Source: an uncultured Candidatus Saccharibacteria bacterium
GTDB taxonomy: Bacteria; Patescibacteriota; Minisyncoccia; Phycocordibacterales; CAIZLB01
NCBI GenBank assembly: GCA_964520545.1
Contig: CAZFOD010000003.1
Span: forward strand, 20,728-84,727
Direction of reading: 5' to 3'
Length of the DNA stretch: 64,000 nucleotides
Shown here piece by piece: positions 8,547-32,790 of this stretch. How positions within the stretch are numbered: position 1 is the first letter of the stretch; every line of letters begins with the position of its first letter. The position numbers were made by a program, and so were the translations under genes. The notes under the pieces were generated by a model. The model was given only the letters and a program-made list of their open reading frames with translations. It made no database searches and was not told where the DNA came from.

Positions 8547-8631
8547 TTGGTGGTGAATGGGTTGAAGTTAAAGAGCGGGCCTCAACGTGAGGTCCGGAAA
8601 AAAGAATACCATAATTTTGCTTAATAGCAAT

Positions 8632-9177: not shown

Positions 9178-9178
9178 G

Positions 9179-9226: not shown

Positions 9227-9292
9227 TACAAACCCTTCACAATCTCTCTGCAGCACATAAAAGCTGGTGTATAATAAAAATATATAAATTAG

Positions 9293-10867
<1,575 letters not shown>

Positions 10868-10882
10868 TTTAGAAGCGATACC

Positions 10883-11437
10883 ATGTACAAGAACATAATC
10901 ATCACATTCTTCGTAATTGTCTTCATTGTTGCAGGTATTGCTTTGTTGTTTGATAGGAATTCATCAGAGCCTGTATCTGCACCGGAAACACCAACCCCAT
11001 CAGCAAAGGCGAGTATGGTTCCATATTCAAATACTGAATATGGCATCTCTTTTGAATATCCATCAAACTTGTATCTTAGTGAAAAAGAAATGAGTTCTTC
11101 AAGTCCAGAGTTTTCCATCTCACTTGTAGAAAGTAGTTCTACAGTTGAAGAATCTCCAGTTTCAATTTTTGTTGATGTGTACAAGAACAAAAATGATCTT
11201 AGTGCAAAGGAATGGATTTCTAAAGAAACAAATTGGACTGTGGCAGGTCAAACTATGAAGGATGTTGAAGTCAGAGGGCTTGCAGGTGTCATATATACAT
11301 ATGACGGGTTGTACCCAGGTAAGGCGTATGTTTTTACCTCTAAGGGGCGCACATATGTCCTTTCGGTAAACTGGCTTAGCTTGAACGATCAACTCATCAA
11401 AGATTTTGATATGATCATCAATTCGCTGGGTATATAA
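10883..11437 (+). CDS. Membrane-anchored extracytoplasmic hypothetical protein
   Basis: Single N-terminal TM helix, Ser-rich linker. Confidence 0.45.
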   Translation: MYKNIIITFFVIVFIVAGIALLFDRNSSEPVSAPETPTPSAKASMVPYSNTEYGISFEYPSNLYLSEKEMSSSSPEFSISLVESSSTVEESPVSIFVDVYKNKNDLSAKEWISKETNWTVAGQTMKDVEVRGLAGVIYTYDGLYPGKAYVFTSKGRTYVLSVNWLSLNDQLIKDFDMIINSLGI

Positions 11438-15650: not shown

Positions 15651-16770
15651 TGACCTTAAGTGTTATTGACCGCAGGATTCCTTCTGATGTTGTATTGAAA
15701 ATGAATACTCTAGTATCGGCAGTGGAACCTTTAATGATTGCAGTGTCACTTGTTTTAAAGACAAGTTCATTAGAGAACTTTAAAGAGAATACGCACCCCT
15801 TGAAATTTGGATTTGATCCATTATTGTGATCAGTCTTTCCAAGACTAAGAGGGCTTCTTCCGTACTTGTCCCAGATGATATCTTTGCCAATTGATTTTCT
15901 TCCAGCAAAGTTTCCATCTACGAATAATTCTATATACCCATCTTTGCTTGAATCTTTAGATGGATTGTATTGAGCAAGAAGATCATGCTTTTTATTAAAG
16001 AATGCTTGTGTGACCGGATATCTTAGTATGTAAAATTCACCCTTTGCATCGTTTACTCTGCCAATCCTGAATGTTACGTTATCTTTATTTTGAATTAATT
16101 CCCAATTAAAGTGACCTACAATCTGTTGGTTACTATTTTTTCCATCTGTAGGCTTCCACTCTGTATATATACTGAAGGGACCTCTCTCGAACTTATCAAA
16201 CGAATCTTTTAGTTCTAATCTGTTTGTGCCGTCAAATTGGGTGCATCCATCAGCGTATGTTGCTTCTCCAAAAAAGTCTGATGATGGAACCCCTTTATTA
16301 AAATCCCAAGAATTATCCCAGACAGCTTCCTTTGGAAGGGGATCTATAGCTGATGGAATTATTTCAATATTCTCTCCTTTGGCTACTGCAACCATGTCAG
16401 CTTTTGTTAATACTGCCTTTGTTTTGAATACAGCACTTGCTGTATCGGTTACTTCTCGAAACGTGTAAGGGTTACCGTCAGTATCAACGCCGCTCTTTCT
16501 TGCAGAGAGGCCCTTTGATTCTTCAAGATGAAAATCACCGACGGTATCACTCAGTGCTCCAGCTTGAATGGTGACAGTCCGGGAATATCCTAGCGGTAAT
16601 ATGTTCCAGTACAAAACATACAATATTAAGAAAAGTGGAATGATAGCAGCAAGAATTCGCAAACTCAATACAAGAGGCCCTCGCGGTGTCACGGGAGCGG
16701 GTGGGGGAATTGGTTTCGGAGCAATTGGGGAAACGGGAACGTATGGTTGATATGGAGTACTTTCATTCAT
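15643..16770 (-). CDS. Membrane-anchored extracytoplasmic protein, possible LamG/ConA-like lectin domain
   Basis: Pro-rich N-terminus, one TM, then beta-rich domain; overlaps downstream GT-C gene by 8 nt. Confidence 0.35.
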   Translation of the reverse strand: MNESTPYQPYVPVSPIAPKPIPPPAPVTPRGPLVLSLRILAAIIPLFLILYVLYWNILPLGYSRTVTIQAGALSDTVGDFHLEESKGLSARKSGVDTDGNPYTFREVTDTASAVFKTKAVLTKADMVAVAKGENIEIIPSAIDPLPKEAVWDNSWDFNKGVPSSDFFGEATYADGCTQFDGTNRLELKDSFDKFERGPFSIYTEWKPTDGKNSNQQIVGHFNWELIQNKDNVTFRIGRVNDAKGEFYILRYPVTQAFFNKKHDLLAQYNPSKDSSKDGYIELFVDGNFAGRKSIGKDIIWDKYGRSPLSLGKTDHNNGSNPNFKGCVFSLKFSNELVFKTSDTAIIKGSTADTRVFIFNTTSEGILRSITLKVNE

Positions 16771-16953
16771 CTATATGTAAAATATTATAACCTACAAACA
16801 TTTAATGCAATGACCGGAATGCATATTCTCCTTAATTGTTTGAATAAAATAGGTTTCTGATATACCCTCATAGGAGAGCCGGAAATATTCGGCCAGCTAT
16901 ATGCGCAGCTTAACGCGCAGTTTTAAGAACATTGATTTGAAAGGCTGAACATT

Positions 16954-17637
16954 ATGTTTCGAAACACGTCACAATGGACGCATCTTTTTGAGGAGAGGGA
17001 TGCATTGTGGATACACGGCGGAAACCCCAAACAGCCGCACGTTATCCTACATTCTGGGAAACACTCAAGCGCCTACTTCATGGCAAAGCTTGTAACGGAA
17101 GACGATACGCTGAGAAGTGAGATGGTCTCTGATCTTCTCGACCTTCTCATTGAAAGAGGTTTTGATGTTGAGGTCGTTGATCGGATCGTCGGTCCTGCTA
17201 CGGGCGCAACAAAGCTCGCGGTGAGCCTTGCTGCGGAGATCACTAAACGGCGTGGTCGCATCTGTCGATCTGCATCACTCGAAAAGCTTAGCAATGGAGC
17301 TAACCTTCGGATGGTCTTCAAGAAGCTGGACGATTGTGTTCAAAGTGGGGAAAACGTTTTGATCATTGAAGATGCGTTTACCACCGGCAGCAGTGTCAGG
17401 CTTGCTCAACTTGCCGTTGTTGCACAGGGCGGTATATGCCCGCCCTACGTTCTGACGTTGATGAATCGCTCCGGACGTAATTTCCACAATGGCTACAGGG
17501 TCATCTCGCTTGTCAATCGCTATCTGCCCATCTGGGATGGCAAAGATGACTGTCAGTTGTGCTCCATCCGCTCTGAGGCCATCCTTCCGAAGGAACCGGC
17601 GTCCAATTGGGAGCGTCTCAAGCGGGGGCGACGATAA
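16954..17637 (+). CDS. Type I phosphoribosyltransferase, orotate PRTase (PyrE)-like
   Basis: PRPP-binding motif VLIIEDAFTTGSS; N-terminal HVILHSGKHSSAYF resembles OPRTase substrate loop; GC-richer. Confidence 0.5.
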   Translation: MFRNTSQWTHLFEERDALWIHGGNPKQPHVILHSGKHSSAYFMAKLVTEDDTLRSEMVSDLLDLLIERGFDVEVVDRIVGPATGATKLAVSLAAEITKRRGRICRSASLEKLSNGANLRMVFKKLDDCVQSGENVLIIEDAFTTGSSVRLAQLAVVAQGGICPPYVLTLMNRSGRNFHNGYRVISLVNRYLPIWDGKDDCQLCSIRSEAILPKEPASNWERLKRGRR

Positions 17638-17650
17638 TGATCGGCATTAA

Positions 17651-17710
17651 AAAGAGCGTCTTTTTCCAAGCACCTTCAGGGGTTGCGAAGAGAAAGACGC
17701 TTTTTTATTT
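17651..17710. terminator. Bidirectional terminator between convergent genes
   Basis: AGCGTCTTT...AAAGACGCT hairpin flanked by A-run upstream and TTTTTTATTT downstream. Confidence 0.5.
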
Positions 17711-18559
17711 CAAATACCTTTCAATATTCTTCTTGTGGTCTTCGTAGTTTGCAGTGCAGTGTATTTTTCTATTATTGTCGTGGATGTAGAAAATACATTT
17801 TGTATTGACGGGGTTGTACGCTGCTTCAATGGCATCAACGCTCGGGTTGGCGATTGCTGTTGGCGGTAGTCCTTTGTATTTGTATGTATTGTATGGAGAT
17901 TCTAGATATTTATCCTCTGACTTAACCTGAGGCCACCACTCTGTTGTTGTACCTTTTGCATACTGAAGGGTAGCGTCCATTTGGAGGTTCATACCGTTGA
18001 ACATTCTGTTCCAGATGATGCCGGAAATGAGACGCATGTCTTCCTTACCAGCAGCTTCTCTTTGGATGATTGATGCAATACGAACTGCGGTGTCGAGGTT
18101 AACATTCTTTTTGAGGTTTCCTGTTTTCTTACTCAGTACCTTCTTTTGAATCGTTTTGTTGAAATTATCAATCATTTCGTTTCCAACTTGTGCGCCTCCT
18201 GTGTCTTTGCTGAACCAATAGCTACCTGGGAGGTAGTAGCCATCAACCTCTGTATCTGTGCCTGTCTCGAGACCGGCGGCACTTAAAAATGCTTCTTTAT
18301 TCTGGTCGTTCCAAGCTAGTGTTTTACCGTAGAGGTCTGCTATTTCCTCCTTTCTCATGCCAGGAGTTACTCGTACGAATCTCATGGACGGATTGGCCAT
18401 ATTGGAGTAGAACTCAAGAGGGTCAATACCCTGGGAATTAAGGAAGTAGGTAGAACCCCCTATGGTCGCTGCAAATATAGCTATTAGGAGGGCTGCGCGA
18501 TTACGCCACTTTCTGTACTCCGCTGGTTGTTGCCTTCGAGGTGCTGATTTAAGACCCAT
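17705..18559 (-). CDS. mltG: Endolytic murein transglycosylase MltG (YceG family)
   Basis: YceG signature SPYNTYKYKGLPPTAIANPS and C-terminal ...FYIHDNNRKIHCTANYEDHKKN. Confidence 0.75.
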   Translation of the reverse strand: MGLKSAPRRQQPAEYRKWRNRAALLIAIFAATIGGSTYFLNSQGIDPLEFYSNMANPSMRFVRVTPGMRKEEIADLYGKTLAWNDQNKEAFLSAAGLETGTDTEVDGYYLPGSYWFSKDTGGAQVGNEMIDNFNKTIQKKVLSKKTGNLKKNVNLDTAVRIASIIQREAAGKEDMRLISGIIWNRMFNGMNLQMDATLQYAKGTTTEWWPQVKSEDKYLESPYNTYKYKGLPPTAIANPSVDAIEAAYNPVNTKCIFYIHDNNRKIHCTANYEDHKKNIERYLK

Positions 18560-18614
18560 ATGCTACCATTATAAGTCACGGTGTAATAAAAGCGAAGCTT
18601 TTACGTCATTATCT

Positions 18615-19163
18615 ATGTCAAAACAGAGTCGCCCGACAAACCAGTCCGCCAGTAAAAAGGAACGTTTTTCGGCGATATACGAGGAACACGCAGATGCGGT
18701 CTTCCGTTTTGCAAGCTACAAGCTCTCTGATAGGGAAAAAGCAAAAGATATTGTTCAGGAATCGTTCGTCAAATTGTGGGAATACATGTCCTCAGATGAG
18801 ACGGTCGATAATCCAAGAGCGCTCATTTTTCGTATAGCTTCGAATTCGATAGTGGATTATTATCGAAAGCGCAAAGATATCTCTCTAGACCTCTTAGCTG
18901 TCGATGGATTCGATCCAACCGACGAGGGTAATGAGGCAGGGAGAATTGTAGACAAATCAGATGGTAAGTTGGCACTCCTGCTTTTAAACCAGCTTGAACA
19001 ACCACTTCGTGATCTTCTGCTTCTGCGATATGTTGACGGCTTGTCGGTCAAAGAAATTGCCGAGGTACAGCGTGAAAGAGAAAATACAGTTTCCGTAAGG
19101 CTCCACAGAGCAATGAAAGAGTTGCGAGAGCTTTATGAAAGAAATGATACCCATGATAAATAA
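18615..19163 (+). CDS. ECF-type RNA polymerase sigma factor (sigma-70 family)
   Basis: Region 2 (...DIVQESFVKLWEY...IASNSIVDYYRKRK) and region 4 HTH (LRYVDGLSVKEIAEVQRERENTVSVRLHRA); start moved to MSKQSR to avoid overlap with mltG. Confidence 0.8.
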   Translation: MSKQSRPTNQSASKKERFSAIYEEHADAVFRFASYKLSDREKAKDIVQESFVKLWEYMSSDETVDNPRALIFRIASNSIVDYYRKRKDISLDLLAVDGFDPTDEGNEAGRIVDKSDGKLALLLLNQLEQPLRDLLLLRYVDGLSVKEIAEVQRERENTVSVRLHRAMKELRELYERNDTHDK

Positions 19164-20181
19164 ATCATTCGACAATTTTATAGAATCATTGAAGGCTGTA
19201 AAGCTTTCAGTTGAAGAAAAGAGCAACATACTTGCTCGTACTTTTGCTGTTATTGAAGATATAGAGGCAGCTTCATCAAAGGCCCCTGTAGCTTCTCCAT
19301 TTTCAACAGCTCCTTGGAATATATATTTTGTACATCGTAAATTTGTTCCATCACTCGTCATTGTCGCCATCCTTTTTGTAACAGGAGGTGCATCTCTTGC
19401 TGCTGAAGCAGCACTTCCAGGTGACTCTCTCTATTCCGTAAAAGTAAACGTGAACGAAGAAGTTCGAGGATTTACTGCTGTAACTCCAGAATCTAAAGCT
19501 CGTGTTGCTGTAGAGGCAACAGAACGACGACTTCAAGAGGTTGCGACACTCTCAGCTCGAGGAAAGCTAAATGACCAAACAAAAGCCATTGCGCAGCAAG
19601 AATTTAAGAAGCGTGCAACACAGGTGCAAAGCCGTGTTGCTTCGTTGGTTTCTGAAAATAATCTAACAGCAGCACAAGAGGTTGCTGTTAACTACGAATC
19701 ATCACTTCGAGCTCACGAAGTCATTCTTGAAAGGATTTCTGAAGACCAGCCTGATGAGAATACAGAACAACACCTCTCATCTTTCATTGCTTCTGTGAAG
19801 ACCGAACTCGCTACAACAACAGATGCTCGAGTGAACATACAAGACAAACAAGTTAAATCAACAATTGATCCAAAGGCAACAGCAGAGTTAAACTTGAAGA
19901 ACGTTCTTTCCCAGACTGATGAGACTTTGAACATGAGGACTGAGAATAAGACGTTGTTGGGGACAACTACAACAGCACTTGTTGGAGGAAAGATATCAGA
20001 AGCACAGGTTCTTACAGTAAAGGCAGAAGGATTCATGGCAAGTAGCAGCTATTCAGAAGCAATTCTCACATTGCAACAGGCAGCTACAGTACTAAGTGAT
20101 GCACAGGGAATCATGAGTGTAGAGGTAGGACTTGATGTTGATGTAAAGAAAGTGACAGGTGCGACAGTAATCATAAAGTAA
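19135..20181 (+). CDS. Putative anti-sigma factor (TM + extracytoplasmic helical domain, DUF5667-like)
   Basis: Overlaps sigma gene 3' end; cytoplasmic N-term, single TM (LVIVAILFVTGGASLAA), long helical ectodomain. Confidence 0.45.
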   Translation: MKEMIPMINKSFDNFIESLKAVKLSVEEKSNILARTFAVIEDIEAASSKAPVASPFSTAPWNIYFVHRKFVPSLVIVAILFVTGGASLAAEAALPGDSLYSVKVNVNEEVRGFTAVTPESKARVAVEATERRLQEVATLSARGKLNDQTKAIAQQEFKKRATQVQSRVASLVSENNLTAAQEVAVNYESSLRAHEVILERISEDQPDENTEQHLSSFIASVKTELATTTDARVNIQDKQVKSTIDPKATAELNLKNVLSQTDETLNMRTENKTLLGTTTTALVGGKISEAQVLTVKAEGFMASSSYSEAILTLQQAATVLSDAQGIMSVEVGLDVDVKKVTGATVIIK

Positions 20182-20194
20182 TAATTTTAACCGC

Positions 20195-21481
20195 ATGGCT
20201 CATACGCCGGTCTCGATTGTCATATTCGGCGTCACAGGTGATCTTGCGAGAGGTAAAATCATCCCTGCAATCTTTGATCTGTATAGACATGGGGATATTG
20301 GAGAAGACTTTTCTGTCATTGGGTATGGACGGAAGGTGTTATGCGCTGAAGAATTCTCATCTCTCATTAATGACGCTATAGCCCTAAAGTATCCTGATAA
20401 GAATCCAAAATCTCTTCGCCAGGCACGGCGATTCATAGACAAGTGTACATATGTACAAGGAGAACTTGCTGAAAAGAAAGGGTATGATCTCCTCAAGGAA
20501 GCAACCAAGGGTAGTGGACGAAATATCTTTTTTCTTTCGGTCCATCCTGAGCTCCATTCCACAATCATTTCACAGCTCGGCAAAGAGAAGCTTCTAAACA
20601 AGGAGAGTCAGATAATGATAGAGAAGCCTTTTGGACATGATGCGGTGTCAGCTGCATCTTTGGATGCGCTTTTACGACGATATATACAAGAAAATCAGAT
20701 ATATCGAGTTGACCACTATCTCGGCAAGTCGGCATTAATAGATGTAATTGAACGCAGAAGAAATGATCCGGATTTTGAAAGAGCTCTGGGCTATATTAAG
20801 GAAATAAAGGTATCACTTTGGGAAACTAAGACTGTTGCAAGAAGAGGTGCATTTTACGATATTGTAGGTGCCTTGAAAGATGTGGGACAAAATCACCTAC
20901 TTCAAATGCTTGCTGTAATTCTCTCTTCCAAGTCTGTGCTGTCTCCAGACGCAACGAAAGTTCAGAAGGCTCGTGCCGGCGCCATCTCTTCTTTGCGTAT
21001 TAAAACTCCTGTTATGAGGGGTCAGTATGTAAAATATCATGACGAGCCTGGTGTTAATCCCTACTCTGAAACCGAAACATTTTTCAGTATTAATGCCTCA
21101 ACGGTTTTAGCGAGACACAGAAAGGCCAATATTTACCTATCCGCAGGTAAGGCATTGTCTGAAAGTCGAGCTGATATATATATTAAGTTTAGTAAGCCGG
21201 TTAAGCTCAAAGAAGGTGTTATTAAGGAGATGATTTTTACAATTAACACACCACTCGGGCTATCTAATTCCGCTGGCCGTAATAGGGAAGCATATGAAAT
21301 GATATTTCTGGCAGTTCTTAAAAAAGACCAGAAACTATTCTGTTCACTAGACGAAGCGATAGCCGGTTGGAAGTTTGATGAACGAGTAAGAGGTTTTTGG
21401 AAGCAACACGAGACACCACTTCAGCGTTATGAGGTTGGGGGGACAATACACATATCAAAGAAATTGGACTCTGTGATATAA
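20195..21481 (+). CDS. zwf: Glucose-6-phosphate 1-dehydrogenase
   Basis: N-terminal IFGVTGDLARGKIIPAIF dinucleotide motif and DHYLGKS active-site motif. Confidence 0.8.
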   Translation: MAHTPVSIVIFGVTGDLARGKIIPAIFDLYRHGDIGEDFSVIGYGRKVLCAEEFSSLINDAIALKYPDKNPKSLRQARRFIDKCTYVQGELAEKKGYDLLKEATKGSGRNIFFLSVHPELHSTIISQLGKEKLLNKESQIMIEKPFGHDAVSAASLDALLRRYIQENQIYRVDHYLGKSALIDVIERRRNDPDFERALGYIKEIKVSLWETKTVARRGAFYDIVGALKDVGQNHLLQMLAVILSSKSVLSPDATKVQKARAGAISSLRIKTPVMRGQYVKYHDEPGVNPYSETETFFSINASTVLARHRKANIYLSAGKALSESRADIYIKFSKPVKLKEGVIKEMIFTINTPLGLSNSAGRNREAYEMIFLAVLKKDQKLFCSLDEAIAGWKFDERVRGFWKQHETPLQRYEVGGTIHISKKLDSVI

Positions 21482-21490
21482 TTTGGGGAC

Positions 21491-23056
21491 ATGCATTCGC
21501 ATCTTCTCGCATTCAATATTGGATTTACTATCTCAATACTTCTTCCTGCTACACTGGGTATCATTGCTTTGTTTAGAGGGTGGAAAAAGCCTGTAAACAT
21601 TGTATATTTTCTTAATAACGTATTTTTCTGTATATTCGCCTTTGCTTATGTAATGGGAGTAAATGAACATAATGCCCTTCTGTCTACAAAGTACATTTAT
21701 TTCACTTTAATAAATTTGTTTACGGTTTGTCTCACTGCACACCTTGCGGTAATTACTTTCGATCAGTGGAAAAAACATAAAAAATATGTTCTTGGTGCCT
21801 ATGCAGTAGCTTTCGTTCTTTTTATTTTCTTTCTCAGTGACATGTCGAGATATGTGATCACATCACGACCGCTTCTTTATTTCCCAAATTTCTATAACCT
21901 GGGTGAATATTACTGGGTTTTCGCAGTATTTTTCTTTTCTGTTGCAGGTTACTTCTTCTATTTCCTCACACATCTTTACCAGACTACTTCTGACACTCAG
22001 ACTAAGATTCGTATTAAATACTTTGCATTGTCATTTGGGTGGGGATACGGCATAGGTTCGTTACCTTTCCTAACCCTTTTTGGAAGCTCTTTTGACCCAA
22101 TGTACGGATCAATTCTTGGTTTATATGTAGTTCCTCTTGGCTATGCAGCTCTTAAATATGACCTCATTGAACTAGGTGTTATTGCAAAGAATGCAACAAT
22201 ATATGCCGTCTCTACTGCATTAGTGGGGCTTCTCATCATTGCTGTTAACGTAAGTAACAACTTTTTTGTTAACTCATACCCTGGATATCCATTTTGGCTC
22301 ATGCCGCTAGTCTCTGGAATCATTGTCGTCGCCGTCTGTTTCTATATCTGGCGGCACATACGTGAAGTTGATATTTTGAAATATGAATTCATAAACAATG
22401 TAAGTCATAAGTTCCGGACACCTTTGACCCATATCCGTTGGCTAGCAGAGGAGCTAAGAACAGAGTCTGATCCGGTAAAGCGAAATGCTGAGGTTGAGCA
22501 GATGCAACATGCCAGCATGCGATTATTTGAACTAACAAATATCGTTATCGACATCGCACGTGATGACAATGACTCATATCAATACCAGTTTAATAATACA
22601 AAGCTTGAGGATATCCTTACCGACATGAAAAGTGGCCACGAGGAACAGATATCTCATAAACAGCAGAATGTCATTCTTGATATTGAACCTGGGTTACCTG
22701 CAATACGGGCAGACAAGACGCGTATGCAGTTCGCTATTCAAATTCTGTTTGAGAATGCCCTCATCTACACCCCAGTAGGTGGAACAATTACGATTACGAT
22801 AAGGAGGGTGGATAATGATGTTGTCGTTACATTCAAGGATACGGGAATTGGTATTGCGCAGGAGGAGATTCCTCACCTGTTTGCCAAATTCTATCGCACC
22901 GCTAATGCGAGACACGCTGATACAGAAGGAATGGGAATTGGTCTCTTTATGACCAAAAATATCATTGAAAAGCACGGAGGAAAGATTGCTGTTGAGTCAG
23001 ACGGAGAGGGAAAGGGATCTACATTCAGTTTCTCGTTGCCTGTAAAGAGCCGTTAG
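21491..23056 (+). CDS. Sensor histidine kinase with multi-TM (7TM-type) sensor domain
   Basis: ~7 TM helices; H-box FINNVSHKFRTPLTHIRW; HATPase_c G-boxes DTGIGI / GMGIGLFMTK. Confidence 0.8.
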   Translation: MHSHLLAFNIGFTISILLPATLGIIALFRGWKKPVNIVYFLNNVFFCIFAFAYVMGVNEHNALLSTKYIYFTLINLFTVCLTAHLAVITFDQWKKHKKYVLGAYAVAFVLFIFFLSDMSRYVITSRPLLYFPNFYNLGEYYWVFAVFFFSVAGYFFYFLTHLYQTTSDTQTKIRIKYFALSFGWGYGIGSLPFLTLFGSSFDPMYGSILGLYVVPLGYAALKYDLIELGVIAKNATIYAVSTALVGLLIIAVNVSNNFFVNSYPGYPFWLMPLVSGIIVVAVCFYIWRHIREVDILKYEFINNVSHKFRTPLTHIRWLAEELRTESDPVKRNAEVEQMQHASMRLFELTNIVIDIARDDNDSYQYQFNNTKLEDILTDMKSGHEEQISHKQQNVILDIEPGLPAIRADKTRMQFAIQILFENALIYTPVGGTITITIRRVDNDVVVTFKDTGIGIAQEEIPHLFAKFYRTANARHADTEGMGIGLFMTKNIIEKHGGKIAVESDGEGKGSTFSFSLPVKSR

Positions 23057-23095
23057 TCTACAATGTACGAACCTATTAATTAATTTGAAACCAGC

Positions 23096-23329
23096 ATGGC
23101 ACTTTTCCAGAACTTTTTAATGAAACAAATGCTTAAGCGTCAGATGAAAGGCGTTCCCGAAGAAGAGCAAGAAAAGATTTTTGCGATGATAGAGAAAAAC
23201 CCTGATTTCTTTCAGAACATTGCTACAGAGATCCAAGAAAAAATGAAAAATGGTAAGGGTCAGCAAGAAGCATCGATGGAAGTAATGATGGCAAATCAGG
23301 AAAAGATGCGAGAACTTTTGGGGAAGTAA
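23096..23329 (+). CDS. Hypothetical small charged protein
   Basis: 77-aa ORF, Lys/Glu/Met-rich. Confidence 0.35.
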   Translation: MALFQNFLMKQMLKRQMKGVPEEEQEKIFAMIEKNPDFFQNIATEIQEKMKNGKGQQEASMEVMMANQEKMRELLGK

Positions 23330-23336
23330 AGACAAT

Positions 23337-24026
23337 ATGAAAACATCGGTATTGATCATTGCGCATAACGAAGAAAGACACATTGAAAAATGCATCAGAT
23401 CACTGCTTAAGCAAACCTCATCACCCGATGAGGTCTTGCTTCTTGCACATAACTGTACTGATGAGACTATCTCAATTGCTAAAAGATTTCCCATTTCAGT
23501 CATTCCATATGACGGACCTCGGGGTATTACACATGCGAGAATAGAAGGACTTAAACATGTTTCTGGGGATATAATTCTCTGCATAGATGGTGATTCTTTC
23601 GCAAAAGAAAATTGGATTGAGGTAATGGTTAAGACACTAAAACAAGGAAATATCCTTGTTGGCTCTTGGGTTAAATATTCAGGAACAATATTGGGCAAAA
23701 TTCTAACACAGAGGCACAAGAATATTTTGAAAGGAAGCACTGCTCGTTCGAGAGTGTGGGGTCCAAGCTTTGCATTCTGGGGGAGCGACAAAGAAAAAAT
23801 CATTCAATACTTTAATGAGGCAATTGAACTACGCAAAAAATTAAATCTTACTCGCGCTATGGATGACTACTATCTTGCGCTCAATATGGAAAAGACCGGA
23901 AAGATTGCTTTCACTAATGAGACATATGTTACTCAGTCTACAAAAGAAAAAACTTCATATAGTGTCCTTACGCGTCACCAAGAGAATTCTCGAAACGTAC
24001 GCTTACTTGATGCAGGTCTCATGTAG
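23337..24026 (+). CDS. Family 2 glycosyltransferase
   Basis: SVLIIAHNEERHI...; CIDGDS (DxD-like). Confidence 0.7.
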   Translation: MKTSVLIIAHNEERHIEKCIRSLLKQTSSPDEVLLLAHNCTDETISIAKRFPISVIPYDGPRGITHARIEGLKHVSGDIILCIDGDSFAKENWIEVMVKTLKQGNILVGSWVKYSGTILGKILTQRHKNILKGSTARSRVWGPSFAFWGSDKEKIIQYFNEAIELRKKLNLTRAMDDYYLALNMEKTGKIAFTNETYVTQSTKEKTSYSVLTRHQENSRNVRLLDAGLM

Positions 24027-24288
24027 GTATTGCCTCCGTTTTAATTTCGTGGCATTGTTGTCTTAAATCATCCAATCTGTTGAGACGCGGGGCGTCCCGA
24101 CGGATGCCGCGCTCTTTGACGCAATAGAATCACCCCGATGAACACAAAGAGTCCAAGTATCACGCTCTGGATCACATTCATGTCTTTGTGGTTTGTTGGC
24201 ATGGTCACCTACGTCACGTTGCGCTCCTGTAGGCGCGTTGCGGTGTGGCTCCATATCATCAAACCGGAATCGATCCATCGTTAGTTTC

Positions 24289-24332
24289 AAGCAGCCCCTC
24301 CGGGAAGACCGGGCGGGCTGTTTTGTATTTTT
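24289..24332 (+). repeat. Terminator-containing direct repeat, copy 1
   Basis: AAGCAGCCCCTCCGGGAAGACCGGGCGGGCTGTTTTGTATTTTT; near-identical copy at 26992-27034 (one C fewer). Confidence 0.8.
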
Positions 24333-24423
24333 AAACTCCTCTTTGGAAAAGTATGAAGAAACAAATAATCGCCGATGGAGGAATTCCTCCATCGGCGATG
24401 TTCTATTTTATCGAGTTTGTGAT

Positions 24424-25356
24424 TTACCCGATGACTCCGGCCCGCTGAAGCGTCCGCCGAGTGATGCGGAGATGATCGCGCGGGGCGAATGTATGGAGAA
24501 GTCCATCTCCCAATGCCGGGATCTGAGCTCGAACTTTCGCTCCGAAGGGTTCGGTGACCACTTCACCATCGTAACCGACTTCGTCCAAGGCACTAGCGAC
24601 GTTTATCCAGTCGGTGCGATCGGTCACCCCAGGTTCTCCGAACATGGGTTTAGCCCCCGCCGGGAGGCGCCTATTACCGTGGGCGTGCAGGTACCCCAAG
24701 ATGTCGCCACCCTTTCGGATCTCATGAGCCGGATCGCGTCCGTAGCTCTGCATGTGGAACGTATCCGCATGCCACAGGACTGTGCGGTTGCCTACCGCGT
24801 TACTGATTGCCCGTACATCTTCGACACTGCTTATCGCGCCGATACTTTCGCCGGGGCGCAAGTATTCGAGCACCACCGTCAGACCTTCACCGTTGAGCTC
24901 GGATTTGAGTTCGCGATAGAAATTGGCGGCGAAGTCGGTAATACCGCCCGGGAACTGAGCTCTGTAGTCGAAATCGACGCAGAAGCACGACGGTCCAGCG
25001 ATTTTTGCCACCTTGATTCCGTTCTTTCGCAGCTCAAGGAGGAAATGGATACCGGCGCGGAAAGAATCAAGGGAAAGCCTGTTCCTCCCGTTGTCATAGA
25101 TCGGGTTTCCCATGCACTGGTTTCCGGGGAAGAAGATGGTGCCGATAGCGGTATCGATACCTCCTCGTTTCATCGCCTCGGCAGTTTCGGCCGGGGTGAG
25201 GTTGTTGAGCGGAGCTCCGGCCCCGATGTCGAGGACGGTGCAACCGTTGTTGTATGCGGTCGTTGTGAAGCGGGTCAGCAGATTCTGCTGGCCTGCATTG
25301 AGGATGCCGGGGCCTGCCAGTTGATGGATGCCGAACGGACGGATATATTTACTCAT
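24424..25356 (-). CDS. Xylose isomerase-like TIM-barrel protein (sugar phosphate isomerase/epimerase family)
   Basis: Family-typical metal-ligand stretches ...VVLEYL... and WHADTFHMQ; GC-rich. Confidence 0.55.
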   Translation of the reverse strand: MSKYIRPFGIHQLAGPGILNAGQQNLLTRFTTTAYNNGCTVLDIGAGAPLNNLTPAETAEAMKRGGIDTAIGTIFFPGNQCMGNPIYDNGRNRLSLDSFRAGIHFLLELRKNGIKVAKIAGPSCFCVDFDYRAQFPGGITDFAANFYRELKSELNGEGLTVVLEYLRPGESIGAISSVEDVRAISNAVGNRTVLWHADTFHMQSYGRDPAHEIRKGGDILGYLHAHGNRRLPAGAKPMFGEPGVTDRTDWINVASALDEVGYDGEVVTEPFGAKVRAQIPALGDGLLHTFAPRDHLRITRRTLQRAGVIG

Positions 25357-25659
25357 GGTTTCTCCTTTTGTGGATTGTTTTTGATGTGATGTGCTTTCCT
25401 TCCTCCGAATTTCTTCAGTGGTAACCCGGGTGAAGTAGACACTTTTTTACAATATTTGTCAAAGAATACAGTACTAGCATCCTTGACTTCCATAACGACT
25501 ATCGTGTAAGTTTCTTCCAGATATAACAGTTCATCGAAAACCTGCTATCTGGATTCTACCCCTCAGACGGGAAATCTTGTCTTGCTTGTGTTGCCGGCTA
25601 TTATGCTTGGCCTCGTAAGATCAATTCGATATGTCCAAAAACCTCAATCCTGAAATCCT

Positions 25660-26859
25660 ATGAAATCCAAACCTGAACAACCCTCAATCGCGTTCTTCGC
25701 GGCTCAACTCAACGCGCTCCTCGTCGGCCCCGGTAATCGGTTTGCCACGTTCGACGACCTGTGCAAGTTCGCCGCGCAAGAGTGCGGCATCACCGGCGTT
25801 AGTATGCCGAGCGGCATGCTCAATGTGCGCCGCATGATCAACGACGATAGTCATCGGGCTGAGGTTGTCGCGCACTATGCCGGCCTCGGAACCCCCATCA
25901 TTGGCATCGAGACTCACATCGTCGGACAGCGTGTCTGCATGCATCCTGCTGTCGTGCCTCGTTTCGTCGGTTTTGCTCCGAAGTGGATGCAACACTGTGG
26001 CGTCGCAGATCTCGAAGCCCAAGCTCGCGATGAAATGCTCGAAGCTATCGAGCTCGGTCGCTTACTCGGGATCCGCCGCCATCAGACGTTCCCCGGCGGG
26101 CGCAGCGTACCCGTTGCCACCGATCCGTGGAATGCACACCCTCCGTTGCTCCGAGAGAAGGCTTTAGCTCTCCTGGCTGTGAAGTGGGAACCCATCCTCA
26201 AGGCTGCGGGTCGGGGAGGAGTTCGCGTCGGTTTTGAGATTCGTCACATCATGGAGGACCTCTTTTCCTGGCGTGATCTCCGGGATTTGCGCAATAAGTA
26301 TCTGCTGGACGTTGTTGCCAGGAACGCTTTCGCCTGGGGCGTGGACGTGTCTCATCATGAGATCGACGGCGACGACCCGACTGAAGACGTGCTCGAATGT
26401 ATCAAACTGGGTCTTGCGGAGCCTGGCCATGCAAAGCAGGGCGACTTCAATTCGAAGAAGCCGGGTGCTTGTCGCCGGCCTGCGAACATGGCCTGGGCTG
26501 ATCGCGCAGGACAATTCCGGACCTTCGGTACAGTGCACCCCGATCATAGTCGGCTCTTCGCGGATGTAGTGCTCAAAGCCCATGAGCGGAGCGCGCACGG
26601 AGAGTTCGCCGTCATTGAAGGCGAGTGCATGGCAATCCGTAATCCCGAGCAAGGCCTGCGTGTGGCTGCGGAAAATCTCCGCTTGGTGTTTGCTGGTAAA
26701 GAGCCCGTTTCTCTCCAGGAAATCACCCTTGAGCCATGGGACGGCCCGGCGTTCGACAAGTTTGCCGATAGCGGCTACACCGCTGAAGCCGTTATGGCGC
26801 TGAGTGGAAATGACGCCAAAGAGGTGAATCGTCGGCTCGAACACGCCGGCGACATCTGA
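25660..26859 (+). CDS. Xylose isomerase-like TIM-barrel family protein (divergent)
   Basis: GFEIRH and VDVSHHE metal-ligand-like motifs; divergent from 24424..25356 with AT-richer intergenic promoter region. Confidence 0.4.
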   Translation: MKSKPEQPSIAFFAAQLNALLVGPGNRFATFDDLCKFAAQECGITGVSMPSGMLNVRRMINDDSHRAEVVAHYAGLGTPIIGIETHIVGQRVCMHPAVVPRFVGFAPKWMQHCGVADLEAQARDEMLEAIELGRLLGIRRHQTFPGGRSVPVATDPWNAHPPLLREKALALLAVKWEPILKAAGRGGVRVGFEIRHIMEDLFSWRDLRDLRNKYLLDVVARNAFAWGVDVSHHEIDGDDPTEDVLECIKLGLAEPGHAKQGDFNSKKPGACRRPANMAWADRAGQFRTFGTVHPDHSRLFADVVLKAHERSAHGEFAVIEGECMAIRNPEQGLRVAAENLRLVFAGKEPVSLQEITLEPWDGPAFDKFADSGYTAEAVMALSGNDAKEVNRRLEHAGDI

Positions 26860-26991
26860 GGCCTGAGAAAGCCAAGAAACCAGAAAGGTTGAAAAGCAAT
26901 TTCCCGTTGGATGGCAGTCCATCCAGCGGGGAATTTTTTTATACTTGTCCATTTTCCTAAAAATGAACACCAAAGGTTCAAAGACTGTTTT

Positions 26992-27034
26992 AAGCAGCCC
27001 TCCGGGAAGACCGGGCGGGCTGTTTTGTATTTTT
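26992..27034 (+). repeat. Terminator-containing direct repeat, copy 2
   Basis: AAGCAGCCCTCCGGGAAGACCGGGCGGGCTGTTTTGTATTTTT. Confidence 0.8.
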
Positions 27035-27066
27035 CAAAGTGTTAGATTGTGTGTTACTATCGCATG

Positions 27067-28164
27067 ATGAAACTATCTTTAGGTATCGTTGGTCTTCCAA
27101 ACGTGGGTAAATCCACGCTTTTTAATGCACTTACAAAGAAATCTGTACCTGCTGAAAACTATCCATTCTGCACCATCGATCCTTCGGTTGGTGTTGTTGC
27201 TGTTCCTGATGAAAGACTCCATAAACTTGCTGATTTTTCAAAGACACTAAAGACAATCCCTGCCGCCATTGAGTTCGTGGATATTGCAGGTCTTGTAAAA
27301 GGAGCATCAGAAGGTGAAGGACTTGGAAACCAATTCCTGTCACATATTCGTGAAGTAGATGCAATCACTGAAGTTGTTCGTATTTTCGAGGATTCAAATG
27401 TCATTCACGTAGATGGAAAGATTAACCCTGTAAATGATATTGGGGTTATTAATCTCGAATTGGTATTAGCAGATGCGCAGACTGTGACAAAGCGACTTGG
27501 CTCTGTTGAAAAAGACGCAAAGCGAGGAGACAAGCTTGCTGTAAAGGAAAAAGCTGCGCTTGAAAAGATCCGTGTAATTCTTGATGAGGGAAAGCTTGCT
27601 CAGCAGGCAGATCTTACAGATGACGACAAGGAGGCAATTAAAAACCTTCAGCTCCTTACCATGAAGCCAATCATGTATGTGCTCAACAAAAAAGCTGGAG
27701 GAACGAATTTGGATGAATTAAATGATGAGCGATATCAGGAATTGATGAAGTTTTTTGTAGATAACAACTTCAAGTGGACAATCGTAGATGCAGGAGTAGA
27801 GCACGAGCTTAAAGACCTAGAAGGAGATGAGAAAGAAATGTTCCGAAAGGAACTGGGTGCTAAGGATGATGGGATTGATAGTCTCATTCGAGCAGGCTTT
27901 GATCTTCTAAACCTTCAGATGTATTTCACCACTGGAGTACAAGAAACACGTGCATGGACGATTCATAAGGGTTGGAATGCTCCAATGGCAGGAACAGCTA
28001 TTCATAATGACTTTAAAGACAAGTTCATCAGAGCTGAAGTTATAAACTGGAAGACTCTAATTGAAGCAGGTTCATACGCAGCTGCTCGTGAAAAAGGATT
28101 AGTAAAAACGGAAGGGAAGGAATATGTCGTACAGGATGGGGATGTAATGGAGTTTAAGGTTTAA
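27067..28164 (+). CDS. ychF: Ribosome-binding ATPase YchF (Obg-like GTPase family)
   Basis: LSLGIVGLPNVGKSTLFNALT P-loop, DIAGLVKGASEGEGLGN G3, C-terminal TGS-like domain. Confidence 0.9.
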   Translation: MKLSLGIVGLPNVGKSTLFNALTKKSVPAENYPFCTIDPSVGVVAVPDERLHKLADFSKTLKTIPAAIEFVDIAGLVKGASEGEGLGNQFLSHIREVDAITEVVRIFEDSNVIHVDGKINPVNDIGVINLELVLADAQTVTKRLGSVEKDAKRGDKLAVKEKAALEKIRVILDEGKLAQQADLTDDDKEAIKNLQLLTMKPIMYVLNKKAGGTNLDELNDERYQELMKFFVDNNFKWTIVDAGVEHELKDLEGDEKEMFRKELGAKDDGIDSLIRAGFDLLNLQMYFTTGVQETRAWTIHKGWNAPMAGTAIHNDFKDKFIRAEVINWKTLIEAGSYAAAREKGLVKTEGKEYVVQDGDVMEFKV

Positions 28165-28257
28165 ACTATTGACACTACGCTATTTTAATGCTACTGTTTT
28201 GCTCGGTAGCTAATTTCAAATATCAACAACCTACAAATCCAAAAGGAGGATTCTCAC

Positions 28258-28587
28258 ATGCCAGAAATGTTTGCCAAAGGTGACAAAGTTCGCCTGAAGA
28301 AAAAAGATGCCGCTATCGGGCTATCGTCCGATGAGGTTCATACCATCGGTGCAGTTCAGGACCTCTTCCTGCCCAACGACTACTACGTCGACCCATGTTA
28401 CTGGGGCGATCCGAAGTGGAGCTGGGCACGTCGCAAGACTCGCCTTCAGGTCGCAGGTCATCCGCAGATTGTCTTTCTGGACGGCGTCTTGCGCCCAAAG
28501 ATGGACACCCCACCAATGAATGAAGACCCTGAAGGTCAGGGACGGTGCAGCTTCTCTGGAGCATATTTTGAAAAAGTGGCAGCTTAA
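28258..28587 (+). CDS. Hypothetical protein (GC-rich islet)
   Basis: 109-aa ORF with strong RBS AAGGAGG; GC-rich; followed by terminator 28597-28650. Confidence 0.4.
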   Translation: MPEMFAKGDKVRLKKKDAAIGLSSDEVHTIGAVQDLFLPNDYYVDPCYWGDPKWSWARRKTRLQVAGHPQIVFLDGVLRPKMDTPPMNEDPEGQGRCSFSGAYFEKVAA

Positions 28588-28596
28588 GCCGCTATA

Positions 28597-28650
28597 ACCC
28601 ATCGTCTCAACCCAGGAACCCCTGTCGTGAGATGGTGGGTTTTCTGTTTC
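28597..28650 (+). terminator. Intrinsic terminator (…GATGGTGGG + TTTTCTGTTT)
   Basis: ACCCATCGTCTCA...TGAGATGGTGGG hairpin then T-run; shares tail with 1834 and 9179 terminators. Confidence 0.5.
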
Positions 28651-29934: not shown

Positions 29935-32790
29935 ATGAAATCTAAAAAAGAAACACAATACGATCATATAAAGATCGAGAAGAAATGGCAGAAAGTTTGG
30001 GAAACAAAGAAGCCATACAAGGCTTCTGATACGAGTAAGGCAAAGAAATTCTATCCTCTTGTAGAATTCCCATTCCCTTCTGGAGCAGGACTCCATACCG
30101 GACACATTCGCAGTTATGCTGCGATGGATATTGTTGCACGTAAACGTCGTATGATGGGAGAAAATGTGTTGTATCCAATCGGATGGGATGCCTTTGGTCT
30201 TCCTACTGAAAACTTTGCGATAAAGACAGGTAAACAGCCTAAGCTTGTAACAAAGGAAAATACGGACAACTTCCGCCGGCAATTAAAGATGCTTGGTCTT
30301 TCATTTGATTGGTCTCGAGAAATCAATACAACAGATCCTGAGTACTATAAATGGACCCAGTGGATATTCATACAGATGTTTAGGAAAGGACTGGCGTACA
30401 AGGCTCGTACGGCAGTAAATTGGTGTCCAAAAGACAAGACAGTGCTTGCAAACGAAGAAGTCATAAATGGGGCGTGTGAACGTTGTGGTACAAACGTTGA
30501 GAAGAGAGAAAAGGAACAGTGGATGCTTGCCATTACAAAGTATGCAGATCGTCTCGACAAAGATCTCGACACTGTCGACTATCTAGAACGTATAAAGATA
30601 CAGCAGCGTAATTGGATTGGTAGAAGTACTGGGTCAGAATTGGATTTCTCAATTGTTGGATCAAAGGAGAGTGTGAAGGTATTCACGACACGAGCGGATA
30701 CGCTCTTTGGTGTGACCTATGTTGTCCTCGCACCAGAACATGCTCTCGTTGAACAGCTTTTAGATAAGGTTTCTAACAAAGCTGAAGTAGTGAAATATAT
30801 TACTGCAGCTAAAGCTCGAGCAGATATTGATAGGACTGCGGAAGGAAAGGAAAAAACAGGAGTTGAACTTAAAGGCGTAAAGGCAGTTAACCCTGCAAAT
30901 GGTGAGGAGGTTCCTGTTTGGATTGCTGACTATGTCCTCGCAACATATGGAACGGGTGCTGTCATGGCGGTTCCTGCACATGATCAAAGAGATCTTGAGT
31001 TTGCTCAGAAATATAATCTTCCAGTAAAAAATGTTGTCATTCCGTCTGTCGTTGACCATGTAAATCCTCCACGTGCTGATAAGGGAACCAAGGTAAGAAA
31101 GAATGTACACGCCATAGTTTTTGATCCTAAGACGAAGAAATACCTCATCATCCGTAACAAGAAGTTCGGATGGGACACTGTTGTCATCGGAGGAATTGAA
31201 GAAGGAGAAGAACCGGTTGATTCAGCACTCCGAGAGTTAGCCGAAGAGACTGGCTACACTGATGTGGAATATAAAAGAACACTTGGTGGACCTGTTCAGG
31301 CTGCATATTTTGCAAAACATAAAGACGAAAACCGTGTAGCTTTTGCTACAGGTGTATATTTTGAATTGAAGAGTGATAAGCGATTAGAGATTGATCAAGG
31401 CGGTGAAAACGAGGGAAATGAAATCCTTTGGGTAGACGGAGCTGAATTTGTCCCTGGAAAGATGGTTAACTCTGAACTTCCATATTGGCTTGAAAGACTT
31501 ACGGCACAAAAAGATATTGCGTATGAAGGGAAGGGAATCCTTGCCGAATCTGGATCATTTGATGGAATGGATTCTGATTCAGCAAAGGTGAAGATTACAA
31601 AGCTTGTGCATGGAAAAGAGGTAACAAAATACAAGTTGAGAGACTGGGTTTTTTCTCGACAACGATATTGGGGAGAACCAATCCCTGTTGTTAATTGTGC
31701 AGCATGCGGATTAGTGGCGCTTCCTGACAAGGAACTTCCTCTTAAATTACCTGAGATAAAGAAATATGAACCTACAGATACCGGTGAATCACCACTTGCA
31801 ACGATAGAGAAGTGGGTAAAGACTAAATGCCCTAATTGTAAGGGTCCAGCAAAGCGCGAAACTGACACTATGCCTCAGTGGGCTGGATCTAGTTGGTACT
31901 ATTTGCGATATGCAGATCCAAAGAACAAGAAAGCACTTATAGATCCAAAGAAACTTAATATCTGGCAGCCTGTTGATTGGTACAACGGGGGTATGGAACA
32001 CACTACTCTTCATTTGTTGTACTCTCGATTCTGGCATAAATTCCTTTTTGACATTGGAGTGGTAAAAACAATTGAACCGTATGCTAAGCGTACCTCTCAC
32101 GGCCTCATTTTGGCCGAAGGCGGAGCGAAAATGTCGAAGTCGAAGGGAAACGTGGTTAACCCCGACGACCTCGTTAAACTCTACGGTGCGGACACATTGC
32201 GTCTTTATGAAATGTTCATGGGTCCATTTGATCAGGCAATACCATGGAGTAGTGACAATATGATCGGACCTCGAAGATTCATTGAAAGAACATGGAATCT
32301 TGCAAAGAAGGTTAAGAAAGCTGATGCCGACAAGGAGGTTGATGCACTGGTTCATAAGACTATTAAAAAAGTGAGTGGGGATATAGAGGGTATGGGCTTC
32401 AATACCGCAGTATCATCACTTATGATTCTCCTCAATGCGTTTGAGAAACAGACTGTAGTATCAAAGGACCATTACAAGATATTCCTTCAGCTCCTTGCTC
32501 CTTTCGTGCCTCATGTTGCTGAAGAATTATGGGCAGAGCAGGGAAACAAGAAGAGTATTCATCAGTCTCCGTGGCCAGAATTTGACCCAAAGAAGCTTAT
32601 TTCCGATTCCTTTAATATTGTTGTCCAAGTTAACGGAAAGGTACGAACTACCTTTGTTTCTGACAGTAATGACGAGGAGACTGTTAAGAAATATGCCCTT
32701 GAACACCCTGTGGTCATCAAATGGCTGGAGGGTAAGACCCCAATTAAGGTCATTTATATCCCAGACAAGCTTGTGAATATCGTCATTTAG
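29935..32790 (+). CDS. leuS: Leucine--tRNA ligase with an inserted Nudix hydrolase domain
   Basis: Class I HTGH (HIGH) and KMSKS motifs; CP1 editing signatures TTRADTLFGVTYVVLAPEH and GTGAVMAVPAHDQRD; extra ~160 aa (res ~368-525) with perfect Nudix box GGIEEGEEPVDSALRELAEETGY. Confidence 0.9.
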   Translation: MKSKKETQYDHIKIEKKWQKVWETKKPYKASDTSKAKKFYPLVEFPFPSGAGLHTGHIRSYAAMDIVARKRRMMGENVLYPIGWDAFGLPTENFAIKTGKQPKLVTKENTDNFRRQLKMLGLSFDWSREINTTDPEYYKWTQWIFIQMFRKGLAYKARTAVNWCPKDKTVLANEEVINGACERCGTNVEKREKEQWMLAITKYADRLDKDLDTVDYLERIKIQQRNWIGRSTGSELDFSIVGSKESVKVFTTRADTLFGVTYVVLAPEHALVEQLLDKVSNKAEVVKYITAAKARADIDRTAEGKEKTGVELKGVKAVNPANGEEVPVWIADYVLATYGTGAVMAVPAHDQRDLEFAQKYNLPVKNVVIPSVVDHVNPPRADKGTKVRKNVHAIVFDPKTKKYLIIRNKKFGWDTVVIGGIEEGEEPVDSALRELAEETGYTDVEYKRTLGGPVQAAYFAKHKDENRVAFATGVYFELKSDKRLEIDQGGENEGNEILWVDGAEFVPGKMVNSELPYWLERLTAQKDIAYEGKGILAESGSFDGMDSDSAKVKITKLVHGKEVTKYKLRDWVFSRQRYWGEPIPVVNCAACGLVALPDKELPLKLPEIKKYEPTDTGESPLATIEKWVKTKCPNCKGPAKRETDTMPQWAGSSWYYLRYADPKNKKALIDPKKLNIWQPVDWYNGGMEHTTLHLLYSRFWHKFLFDIGVVKTIEPYAKRTSHGLILAEGGAKMSKSKGNVVNPDDLVKLYGADTLRLYEMFMGPFDQAIPWSSDNMIGPRRFIERTWNLAKKVKKADADKEVDALVHKTIKKVSGDIEGMGFNTAVSSLMILLNAFEKQTVVSKDHYKIFLQLLAPFVPHVAEELWAEQGNKKSIHQSPWPEFDPKKLISDSFNIVVQVNGKVRTTFVSDSNDEETVKKYALEHPVVIKWLEGKTPIKVIYIPDKLVNIVI

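Follow-up and report, generated by a model that had tools for sequence, protein, structure and literature searches.

A GC-rich islet of two TIM-barrel genes between copies of a predicted terminator next to ychF in a Patescibacteria genome

Genomic islands bounded by attL and attR sites, which are integrase-mediated and often sit at tRNA genes, are marked by atypical composition, an empty site, direct repeats with an identical core, and a hotspot location beside a conserved gene. Campbell-type integration and homology-facilitated illegitimate recombination, described in Acinetobacter baylyi, Streptococcus pneumoniae and Escherichia coli (PMC3240628), use host recombination only; a conserved gene is the anchor, and a short homologous segment on the incoming DNA is left as a copy at either side of the insert. 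These are laboratory events–for example, in E. coli, single crossovers of circles with a short homologous segment duplicated that segment (109-950 bp) around the insert (PMC3240628). Xer-dependent modules (IMEX, and the pdif modules of Acinetobacter) and integron cassettes are small cargoes that lack a recombinase and have short boundary sites capable of forming hairpins. Here we describe a locus that has something in common with each of these systems. It lies in a 64,000-nucleotide stretch of DNA (the window) from contig CAZFOD010000003.1 of an uncultured member of the Patescibacteriota (assembly GCA_964520545.1), and it consists of two divergent triosephosphate isomerase (TIM)-barrel genes, TIM1 and TIM2, placed between two copies (T1 and T2) of a putative hairpin terminator, T, just upstream of the conserved gene ychF (Table 1).

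The insert proper, at 24333-26991, is 2.66 kb long, and we refer to it as an islet. We consider it fairly probable that it was acquired recently, at T, by a Paceibacteria chromosome, about 30 nucleotides (nt) upstream of ychF, through homologous recombination via T-bearing DNA. The islet matches attL/attR islands in all of the features listed above, but it lacks an integrase, any other mobility gene and a tRNA, its repeat is a predicted intrinsic terminator, and it spans only 2.7 kb with two metabolic genes. With the Campbell-type and homology-facilitated events it has in common the duplicated short segment, the conserved gene as anchor and the apparent reliance on host recombination; unlike them it is natural, its duplication is only 37-52 nt, and its route is inferred from the product. 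Compared with the Xer-dependent modules, T has no dif-like 11-6-11 layout (judged by eye), and in contrast to both those modules and integron cassettes the cargo is a pair of divergent genes with their own terminators and presumably their own promoters, while a second insert at the same locus, in a relative, duplicates a different sequence. As an event it is well resolved but familiar, the horizontal gain of a small islet with direct repeats at a hotspot, and it does not amount to a new system.

Table 1. Features of the islet and its surroundings, in window coordinates.
Feature	Position	Strand	Description
p77	23096-23329	+	Conserved 77-amino-acid (aa) gene at the left edge of the variable gap; tblastn synteny
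GT2	23337-24026	+	GT2 family glycosyltransferase, host-like GC; Pfam PF00535 at 4e-25
p48	24138-24284	+	Hydrophobic 48-aa open reading frame (ORF); GC at third codon positions (GC3) 0.69; ends 4 nt ahead of T1
T1	24289-24332	+	Left hairpin terminator copy, 44 nt, sequence AAGCAGCCCCTCCGGGAAGACCGGGCGGGCTGTTTTGTATTTTT
Left spacer	24333-24367		AT-rich, 35 nt; contains ATGAAGAAAC
TIM1's own terminator	24368-24399		Perfect 14-bp-stem palindrome, T-rich tails on both strands; -29.8 kcal/mol, z -8.6
TIM1	24424-25356	-	310 aa
Divergent intergenic region	25357-25659		AT-richer, 36-45% GC
TIM2	25660-26859	+	399 aa
TIM2's own terminator	26898-26935	+	17-pair hairpin, then TTTTTTT; -28.4 kcal/mol, z -6.8
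Right spacer	26936-26991		AT-rich, 56 nt; contains ATGAACACCAAAGGTTCAA at 26963-26981
T2	26992-27034	+	Right hairpin terminator copy, 43 nt; T1 minus one C
Extended -10-like motif	27052-27060	+	TGTTACTAT, 3-6 nt ahead of the ychF ATG
ychF	27064-28164	+	Redox-regulated ATPase (Pfam); conserved gene right of the insertion site

The two copies of T were paired by a repeat finder at 98% identity over 40 nt, with a spacing of 2702. Their exact common core is 37 nt long (24296-24332 = 26998-27034), and the loose limits of the duplication are 24284-24335 and 26987-27037. On the plus strand both copies fold into a 14-pair hairpin (about -24 kcal/mol, z about -4) followed by UUUUGUAUUUUU, and their minus strands have no U-run; T1 and T2 look like one-directional intrinsic terminators. 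A first-pass annotation made from the sequence alone had described near-identical repeats of 43-44 bp that differ by one C, each a GC hairpin plus a T-run, and our reading of the sequence and the folding of both copies bear this out. T1 begins 4 nt past the stop codon of p48, and T2 lies 3' of TIM2 and of TIM2's own terminator. By its position and fold, T is predicted to be the intrinsic terminator of the GT2-p48 unit. The window holds only two copies of T (shuffled sequence is expected to give 0 matches), related loci of 17-21 kb hold one copy each, and searches of the JGI metagenomes and IMG/VR gave no match, hence no donor or other context. The annotation had pointed out that the 44-mer might recur at many unrelated terminators and then be no insertion scar; these counts show no such recurrence, and with two copies in 64 kb and one per related locus we rejected a dispersed repeat (repetitive extragenic palindrome-like, or a common terminator family). 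Another candidate for the bounding repeat, the D5 'GGTGGGTTTTCT' family, proved to consist merely of similar terminator tails.

An empty version of the site is present in three Logan contigs (L096-L098, from SRR28892714-16) that we reached by a ychF cluster look-up. They are 86-92% identical to the window in DNA sequence (92% for ychF in L096, with 3 amino acid differences in the 365 residues of the protein, and 90% amino acid identity for GT2), and their gene order is HK-p77-GT2-p48-single T-ychF, with the single T in the place that T1 occupies after p48. The GT2 stop codon and the ychF ATG are 338 bp apart in these contigs; in the window the distance is 3040 bp, longer by 2702, exactly the repeat spacing. 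In BLAST alignments, L096 positions 1-9971 correspond to window 14332-24335 and L096 positions 9920-11100 to window 26987-28166, and the 52-nt overlap is the duplicated segment. Only two large differences interrupt the 21 kb of alignment with L096, and the islet is one of them. GT2 and ychF without the island between them, which the first-pass annotation had suggested looking for in relatives, are thus found; the single T fits its proposal of a cassette inserted by recombination at a terminator, or a terminator carried with the insert, and the empty site and foreign composition agree with its view of the locus as the footprint of a recent horizontal acquisition.

The empty site also shows how the two junctions are built. 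The single T of L096 is identical to T1 at 44 of 44 nt and in the GTTTC that precedes it, and to its right it continues into CAAAGTG, as T2 does. T2 departs from the single T in having CCC instead of CCCC and GTTTT instead of GTTTC directly upstream. Recipient sequence borders T1 on the left and insert sequence borders it on the right, and for T2 the sides are exchanged; attL and attR sites have this pattern. If the incoming DNA had a T of its own, a crossover within the 37-nt core would be expected to leave such a hybrid arrangement.

Between T1 and T2 the GC content is 0.55-0.65 (0.58 overall), compared to a background of about 0.415 in the window, and GC3 is 0.66 in TIM1 and 0.64 in TIM2 versus 0.33-0.38 in neighboring host genes. 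The tetranucleotide profile of the insert is one of the two outliers in the window (robust z 5.9) and has a correlation of -0.06 with host DNA. The insert is therefore foreign and has not yet adapted to the composition of its host. These three measures agree with the first-pass description of an island GC-richer than the flanking GT2 and ychF, but the limits of that island need correction: the DNA between the repeats is GC-rich as described, yet the GC-rich DNA is not confined there and starts near 24030, about 260 bp to the left of T1. That 260-bp stretch is the p48 region, which is kept at the empty site too; in L096 the p48 reading frame is unbroken, and its codon changes number 10 synonymous and 7 non-synonymous. 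Because it is also present at the empty site, p48 belongs to the recipient despite its high GC. Gene callers picked a 71-aa ORF on the opposite strand (24063-24278) in place of p48.

The islet carries nothing that we recognize as machinery for its own movement. Only two of its ORFs have family matches, both to Pfam PF01261, and their coordinates are exactly those of the two divergent TIM-barrel genes that the first-pass annotation had reported. Among the islet ORFs we found no Pfam match to a tyrosine or serine recombinase, an integrase, a transposase or any other mobility gene. No terminal inverted repeats pair the insert ends, a tRNA scan and Rfam search around the site found nothing nearby, and the insert has no match in plasmid and phage DNA. 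We accordingly rejected three familiar types of element: an insertion sequence or transposon (no transposase, no inverted repeats pairing the ends), an integron cassette (no IntI or attI) and a prophage or plasmid remnant (no match to such DNA).

The site itself is variable among relatives. The order p77-ychF-(DUF5671)-leucyl-tRNA synthetase is kept across about 40 Patescibacteria loci, and the YchF protein of the window shares 60-72% identity with its counterparts in Patescibacteria genomes that bear labels such as Taylorbacteria and Paceibacteria. The gap between p77 and ychF ranges from 0 to 5 kb: p77 is 8-50 bp from ychF in five relatives (L017, L021, L025, L030 and L039, by tblastn), and filled gaps hold 0.4-5 kb of unrelated DNA. 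In the window the gap is 3.7 kb and consists of GT2, p48, T1, the insert and T2. Because p77 abuts ychF in many relatives and others carry unrelated DNA there, the p77-ychF gap is a variable hotspot. GT2 is absent from this gap in all relatives more distant than L096-L098, with weak GT2 hits (28-30%) in L049 only. Thirteen more distant relatives with a filled gap show no duplication of the region upstream of ychF.

One relative has a second insertion of comparable structure. In L095 (GCA_040384045.1), whose ychF is 78% identical to that of the window in DNA sequence, the same flanks enclose different gap cargo, a 4.5-kb insert with a 1425-aa ORF that has no Pfam match. On either side of this insert (5399-5438 and 9984-10023) lies a 40-nt copy of the ychF promoter and first eight codons; the two copies are 83% identical, and the displaced left one, which is decayed, is nearer to the window allele than is L095's own working copy. 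Because the window and L095 inserts are flanked by duplications of different local sequence, at neighboring but different positions, the pair argues for homology-driven capture beside a conserved anchor gene and against a specific attachment site.

The same pair of inserts could be taken as the product of a transposition-like insertion, in which a staggered cut 44-52 nt apart was followed by gap repair that duplicated T. Two independent hotspot inserts whose duplications differ little in length (window, 43-52 nt; L095, 40 nt) would fit, as would T1 being an exact copy of the ancestral T. T2, however, is not an exact copy, the p48-like remnant beside it (described below) is unexpected from a simple target duplication, there is no transposase, casposase or terminal inverted repeat, and the 13 more distant filled gaps have no such repeats, though old ones could have decayed. 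We know of no bacterial system that makes 40-50-nt target duplications around kilobase-sized cargo. Together these points make a staggered cut very improbable.

T might alternatively be the attachment site of a site-specific recombinase encoded elsewhere, in the genome or by a helper, and the islet a non-autonomous integrative cassette that excises and integrates at T, in the manner of Xer-dependent dif/pdif modules or mobilizable islands. Such a cassette would be expected to look much like this one: its two ends carry the same 37-nt core as a direct repeat, its T is an inverted repeat as are many recombinase core sites, its junctions have the attL/attR hybrid pattern, and it has no integrase of its own. 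T is also kept at 44 of 44 nt between the window and L096, compared to 88-93% identity in the 100-nt flanks, an outcome with a chance of about 0.01; the terminator role of T explains this conservation equally well. The L095 insert duplicates the ychF promoter and start rather than T, no recombinase gene was found among the ORFs examined around the site, and T has no match in the JGI metagenomes or IMG/VR and a single copy in each related locus. We regard this explanation as unlikely.

Homologous recombination with T-bearing DNA, the route that we prefer, could have proceeded as follows. The incoming DNA, from a related genome's version of the same locus, would have carried its own, slightly different T, probably together with a decayed p48 start. 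Host homologous recombination within the 37-nt core would then have joined it to the chromosome, either as a Campbell-type single crossover of a circularized fragment or through a one-sided homologous anchor in T/ychF combined with an illegitimate left joint. Either route would leave T on both sides, with T1 having the recipient's left side and T2 the donor's, and neither would involve an element-encoded recombinase. A possible trace of the donor lies in the right spacer, where ATGAACACCAAAGGTTCAA (26963-26981) has a likeness to the start of p48 whose local-alignment score is equalled by 31 of 2000 shuffles (P about 0.016); this sequence may be a remnant of the donor's p48-T locus.

The surroundings of the site suggest why such an insert could be tolerated. 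T forms a third terminator at each insert end, in addition to the insert's own two. The TGTTACTAT motif just ahead of the ychF start, a putative promoter whose position suggests a leaderless ychF mRNA, is kept in the window, in L095 (about 9988-10003) and in L096 (about 9986-10003, as TATGATACTAT), and is intact after the insertion. Because there are terminators at both ends and this motif is untouched, the insertion is predicted to be transcriptionally harmless: the terminators would insulate the insert, the ychF promoter would be undisturbed, and the site would act as a low-cost landing pad, which may explain why the islet persists. In L096 the first ATG of ychF is AGG, and the second ATG is probably the start.

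Several observations weigh against this account. No donor molecule, nor any copy of the variant T outside the locus, was found in our searches. T2 is distinguished by one C in the C-run and by a base immediately beyond the 44 nt, and both differences could have arisen by later mutation rather than come from the donor; for a RecA-dependent crossover, 37-52 nt is a short homology. A sliding identity window against L096 shows no step or mosaic donor-recipient boundary in ychF. The p48-like remnant beside T2 is weakly significant, and on the other side of the insert ATGAAGAAAC in the left spacer has a weak likeness to the ychF start that is not significant (168 of 2000 shuffles reach its local-alignment score). 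Finally, all Logan contigs assembled at k=31 break exactly at the 37-nt core–L004 ends at 24325, L002 corresponds to 24370-27027, and L005 starts at 27005–and their graph fits an integrated islet and an empty site plus a T-bearing circle equally well.

This last point raises the question of an assembly artefact, in which a 2.66-kb segment that exists as a molecule of its own, or that comes from some other genome with the same 37-nt core, was threaded at the repeat into a locus that is really empty. The k=31 Logan assemblies always give the segment as a separate 2658-bp contig ending at the repeat and the palindrome, its composition is alien, and exact full-length products of TIM1 and TIM2 are on record from short contigs only (when TIM1, TIM2, GT2 and ychF were looked up as exact proteins, every record was a k=31 Logan contig broken at the repeat). 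A 194,252-bp NCBI/ENA contig from an independent assembly, on the other hand, joins C-terminal fragments of both TIM proteins, at 100% identity, with the window's ychF. The usual metagenome assemblers finish at k>=55, which exceeds the 37-nt core, and an assembler ending there needs real spanning k-mers to make this join. A 2.7-kb circle without a replication gene is an implausible replicon, an unrelated genome that happened to share a 43-nt terminator and a p48-like remnant would be an odd coincidence, and T1 and T2 differ as expected of two real copies. We therefore judge an artefact decidedly unlikely.

TIM1 matches PF01261 (xylose isomerase-like TIM barrel) at 47.0 bits, above the cut-off of 31.1, and a phmmer search of the PDB matched it to D-tagatose 3-epimerase (2e-6). 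Its predicted structure (mean predicted local distance difference test score, pLDDT, 92.6) matches ketose 3-epimerases in Foldseek at 1e-15, with template modeling (TM) scores of 0.72-0.80. Residues E164, D198, H224 and E269 align with the metal and catalytic residues of ketose 3-epimerases and are invariant in the TIM1 family, and D198 lies within a DTFHM motif identical to that of those enzymes. TIM1 thus resembles a ketose-3-epimerase-like metal enzyme in fold and metal site only, to judge from the model: with the D-psicose, D-tagatose and L-ribulose 3-epimerases it has in common the fold and the Glu-Asp-His-Glu metal site, but it differs from them in being only 16-22% identical and in falling below the equivalog cut-off.

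TIM2 scores 25.0 bits against PF01261, under the gathering cut-off (31.1), and its TIM-barrel fold is assigned from its structural model and its similarity to PDB entry 8ro4. That entry is AtHYD, the 2-hydroxy-3-keto-glucal hydratase of Agrobacterium tumefaciens (PMC10628242), to which the hydration step of an oxidation-elimination-hydration-reduction type of glycoside cleavage is assigned, on evidence that its authors call preliminary (PMC10628242). TIM2 matches 8ro4 with an E-value of 1.5e-22 over residues 19-337, and the TIM2 model matches it in Foldseek at 7e-18 (27% identity, TM 0.70/0.81). Seven residues (E193, H196, D229, H232, H257, E320 and E322) are invariant in the family alignment and fall at Glu, His and Asp positions aligned with AtHYD. 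TIM2 is a clear homologue of AtHYD, similar to it in full-length sequence, fold and conserved metal/catalytic positions, and a predicted hydratase of 2-hydroxy-3-keto-glucal; it differs in being about 50 residues longer and in belonging to a rare family, with 72 representatives at E<=1e-3, seven of them at E<=1e-30, among 1.84 billion.

Genomic context limits how far these assignments can be taken. The AtHYD operon contains a glycoside 3-dehydrogenase, a beta-eliminase (AtOGE) and a Gfo/Idh/MocA reductase, none of which adjoins TIM2. Distant proteobacterial homologues of TIM2 adjoin Gfo/Idh/MocA oxidoreductase and sugar ATP-binding cassette (ABC) transporter genes, and one distant homologue on a plasmid has a Gfo/Idh/MocA gene beside it. 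Telling against the assigned functions are the lack of a glycoside 3-dehydrogenase or Gfo/Idh/MocA partner among the ORFs scanned, the identities of 16-27% on which both predictions rest, and the 37.7 bits that TIM1 scores against the NCBIfam D-psicose 3-epimerase equivalog NF051856, which fails its cut-off of 300. The islet cargo probably acts on keto-sugars, and because the islet has no AtHYD-type partner gene, nothing more specific than 'keto-sugar processing' can be claimed. The promoters of both genes are presumed to lie in the divergent intergenic region; this prediction is based on consensus matches, of which there is one promoter-like example on the plus strand (25577-25604).

Patescibacteria have tiny genomes and very limited metabolism, and gene gain in them has mostly been inferred statistically; here it can be read to the base pair. 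The locus suggests gene gain by host recombination alone, at an insulated intergenic spot beside a conserved gene, through which an organism poor in sugar metabolism would have gained two keto-sugar enzymes.

Homologues of TIM1 and TIM2 that could be placed in other genomes (L007, L009, L012/L099, L101, L102 and L103) are 39-74% identical to the window proteins, are mostly lone genes, and occupy different loci in different genomes. All of them are GC-rich (0.53-0.60) within AT-richer flanks (0.40-0.52), being 5-16 GC points above the flanks. None of the loci checked has flanking repeats, and none has a TIM1-TIM2 pair except L014 (JGI 3300037882, 95% DNA identity), a fragment that is the only other such pair found. 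Over window 24386-26234, L014 is 97.9% identical in TIM1, 91.1% in the intergenic region, 93.2% in its part of TIM2 and 79% in the 3' tail of TIM1, and this uneven divergence may reflect a mosaic formed by recombination within the islet. The pattern of GC-rich homologues could result from many independent imports from unsampled GC-rich donors, or from a pool of cassettes circulating among low-GC genomes. A broader conjecture is one that we consider doubtful at best: landing pads beside ychF (T, the promoter/start and the downstream terminator) would serve recurrent integrase-free capture of cassettes in Paceibacteria, typically with duplication of 40-50 nt of target, and the GC-rich TIM genes would be drawn from a pool of small cassettes that moves among low-GC reduced genomes and never takes on the composition of its hosts. 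What might lead further is limited to two observations, the repeated 40-50-nt duplications next to ychF and the gene family that stays GC-rich.

On the 194,252-bp NCBI/ENA contig, TIM1 is recorded as its last 109 aa (24424-24753) and TIM2 as its last 290 aa (25987-26859), both at 100% identity. These truncated records are probably gene-finder miscalls in foreign GC-rich DNA, and could instead reflect a real sequence difference in the middle of that contig. Long antisense ORFs are present in the islet region at 24193-25389 and 25684-26022. If foreign genes are annotated in truncated form, metabolic surveys of such genomes may miss acquired functions.

A second GC-rich block is located at 2834-7639 in the window, comprising genes for an S-adenosylmethionine (SAM) methyltransferase, aconitase-family large and small subunits (LeuC/LeuD-like) and an isopropylmalate/isocitrate dehydrogenase-like protein. 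No flanking direct repeat was found around this block (2.8-7.6 kb). Its GC3 is 0.61-0.70 and its tetranucleotide z is about 6.5, and its profile is correlated with the TIM islet's (r = 0.75), whereas no such correlation exists with host DNA.

DNA has also been swapped at a second site, the gap between ychF and the DUF5671 gene (window 28167-28594; L096 11101-12153; L095 11102-11724). Each genome has a different ORF there: in the window it is a GC-rich one of 109 aa, p109 (28258-28587), in L096 one of 131 aa, and in L095 one of 92 aa on the minus strand. The ychF stop codon immediately precedes the swapped DNA in both the window and L096, and a terminator-like sequence that is conserved (window 28596-28648) marks its other end. 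Further downstream, the leucyl-tRNA synthetase (window 29935-32790, 951 aa) has a NUDIX domain between its synthetase domains, and the same arrangement is found in L095 and L096.

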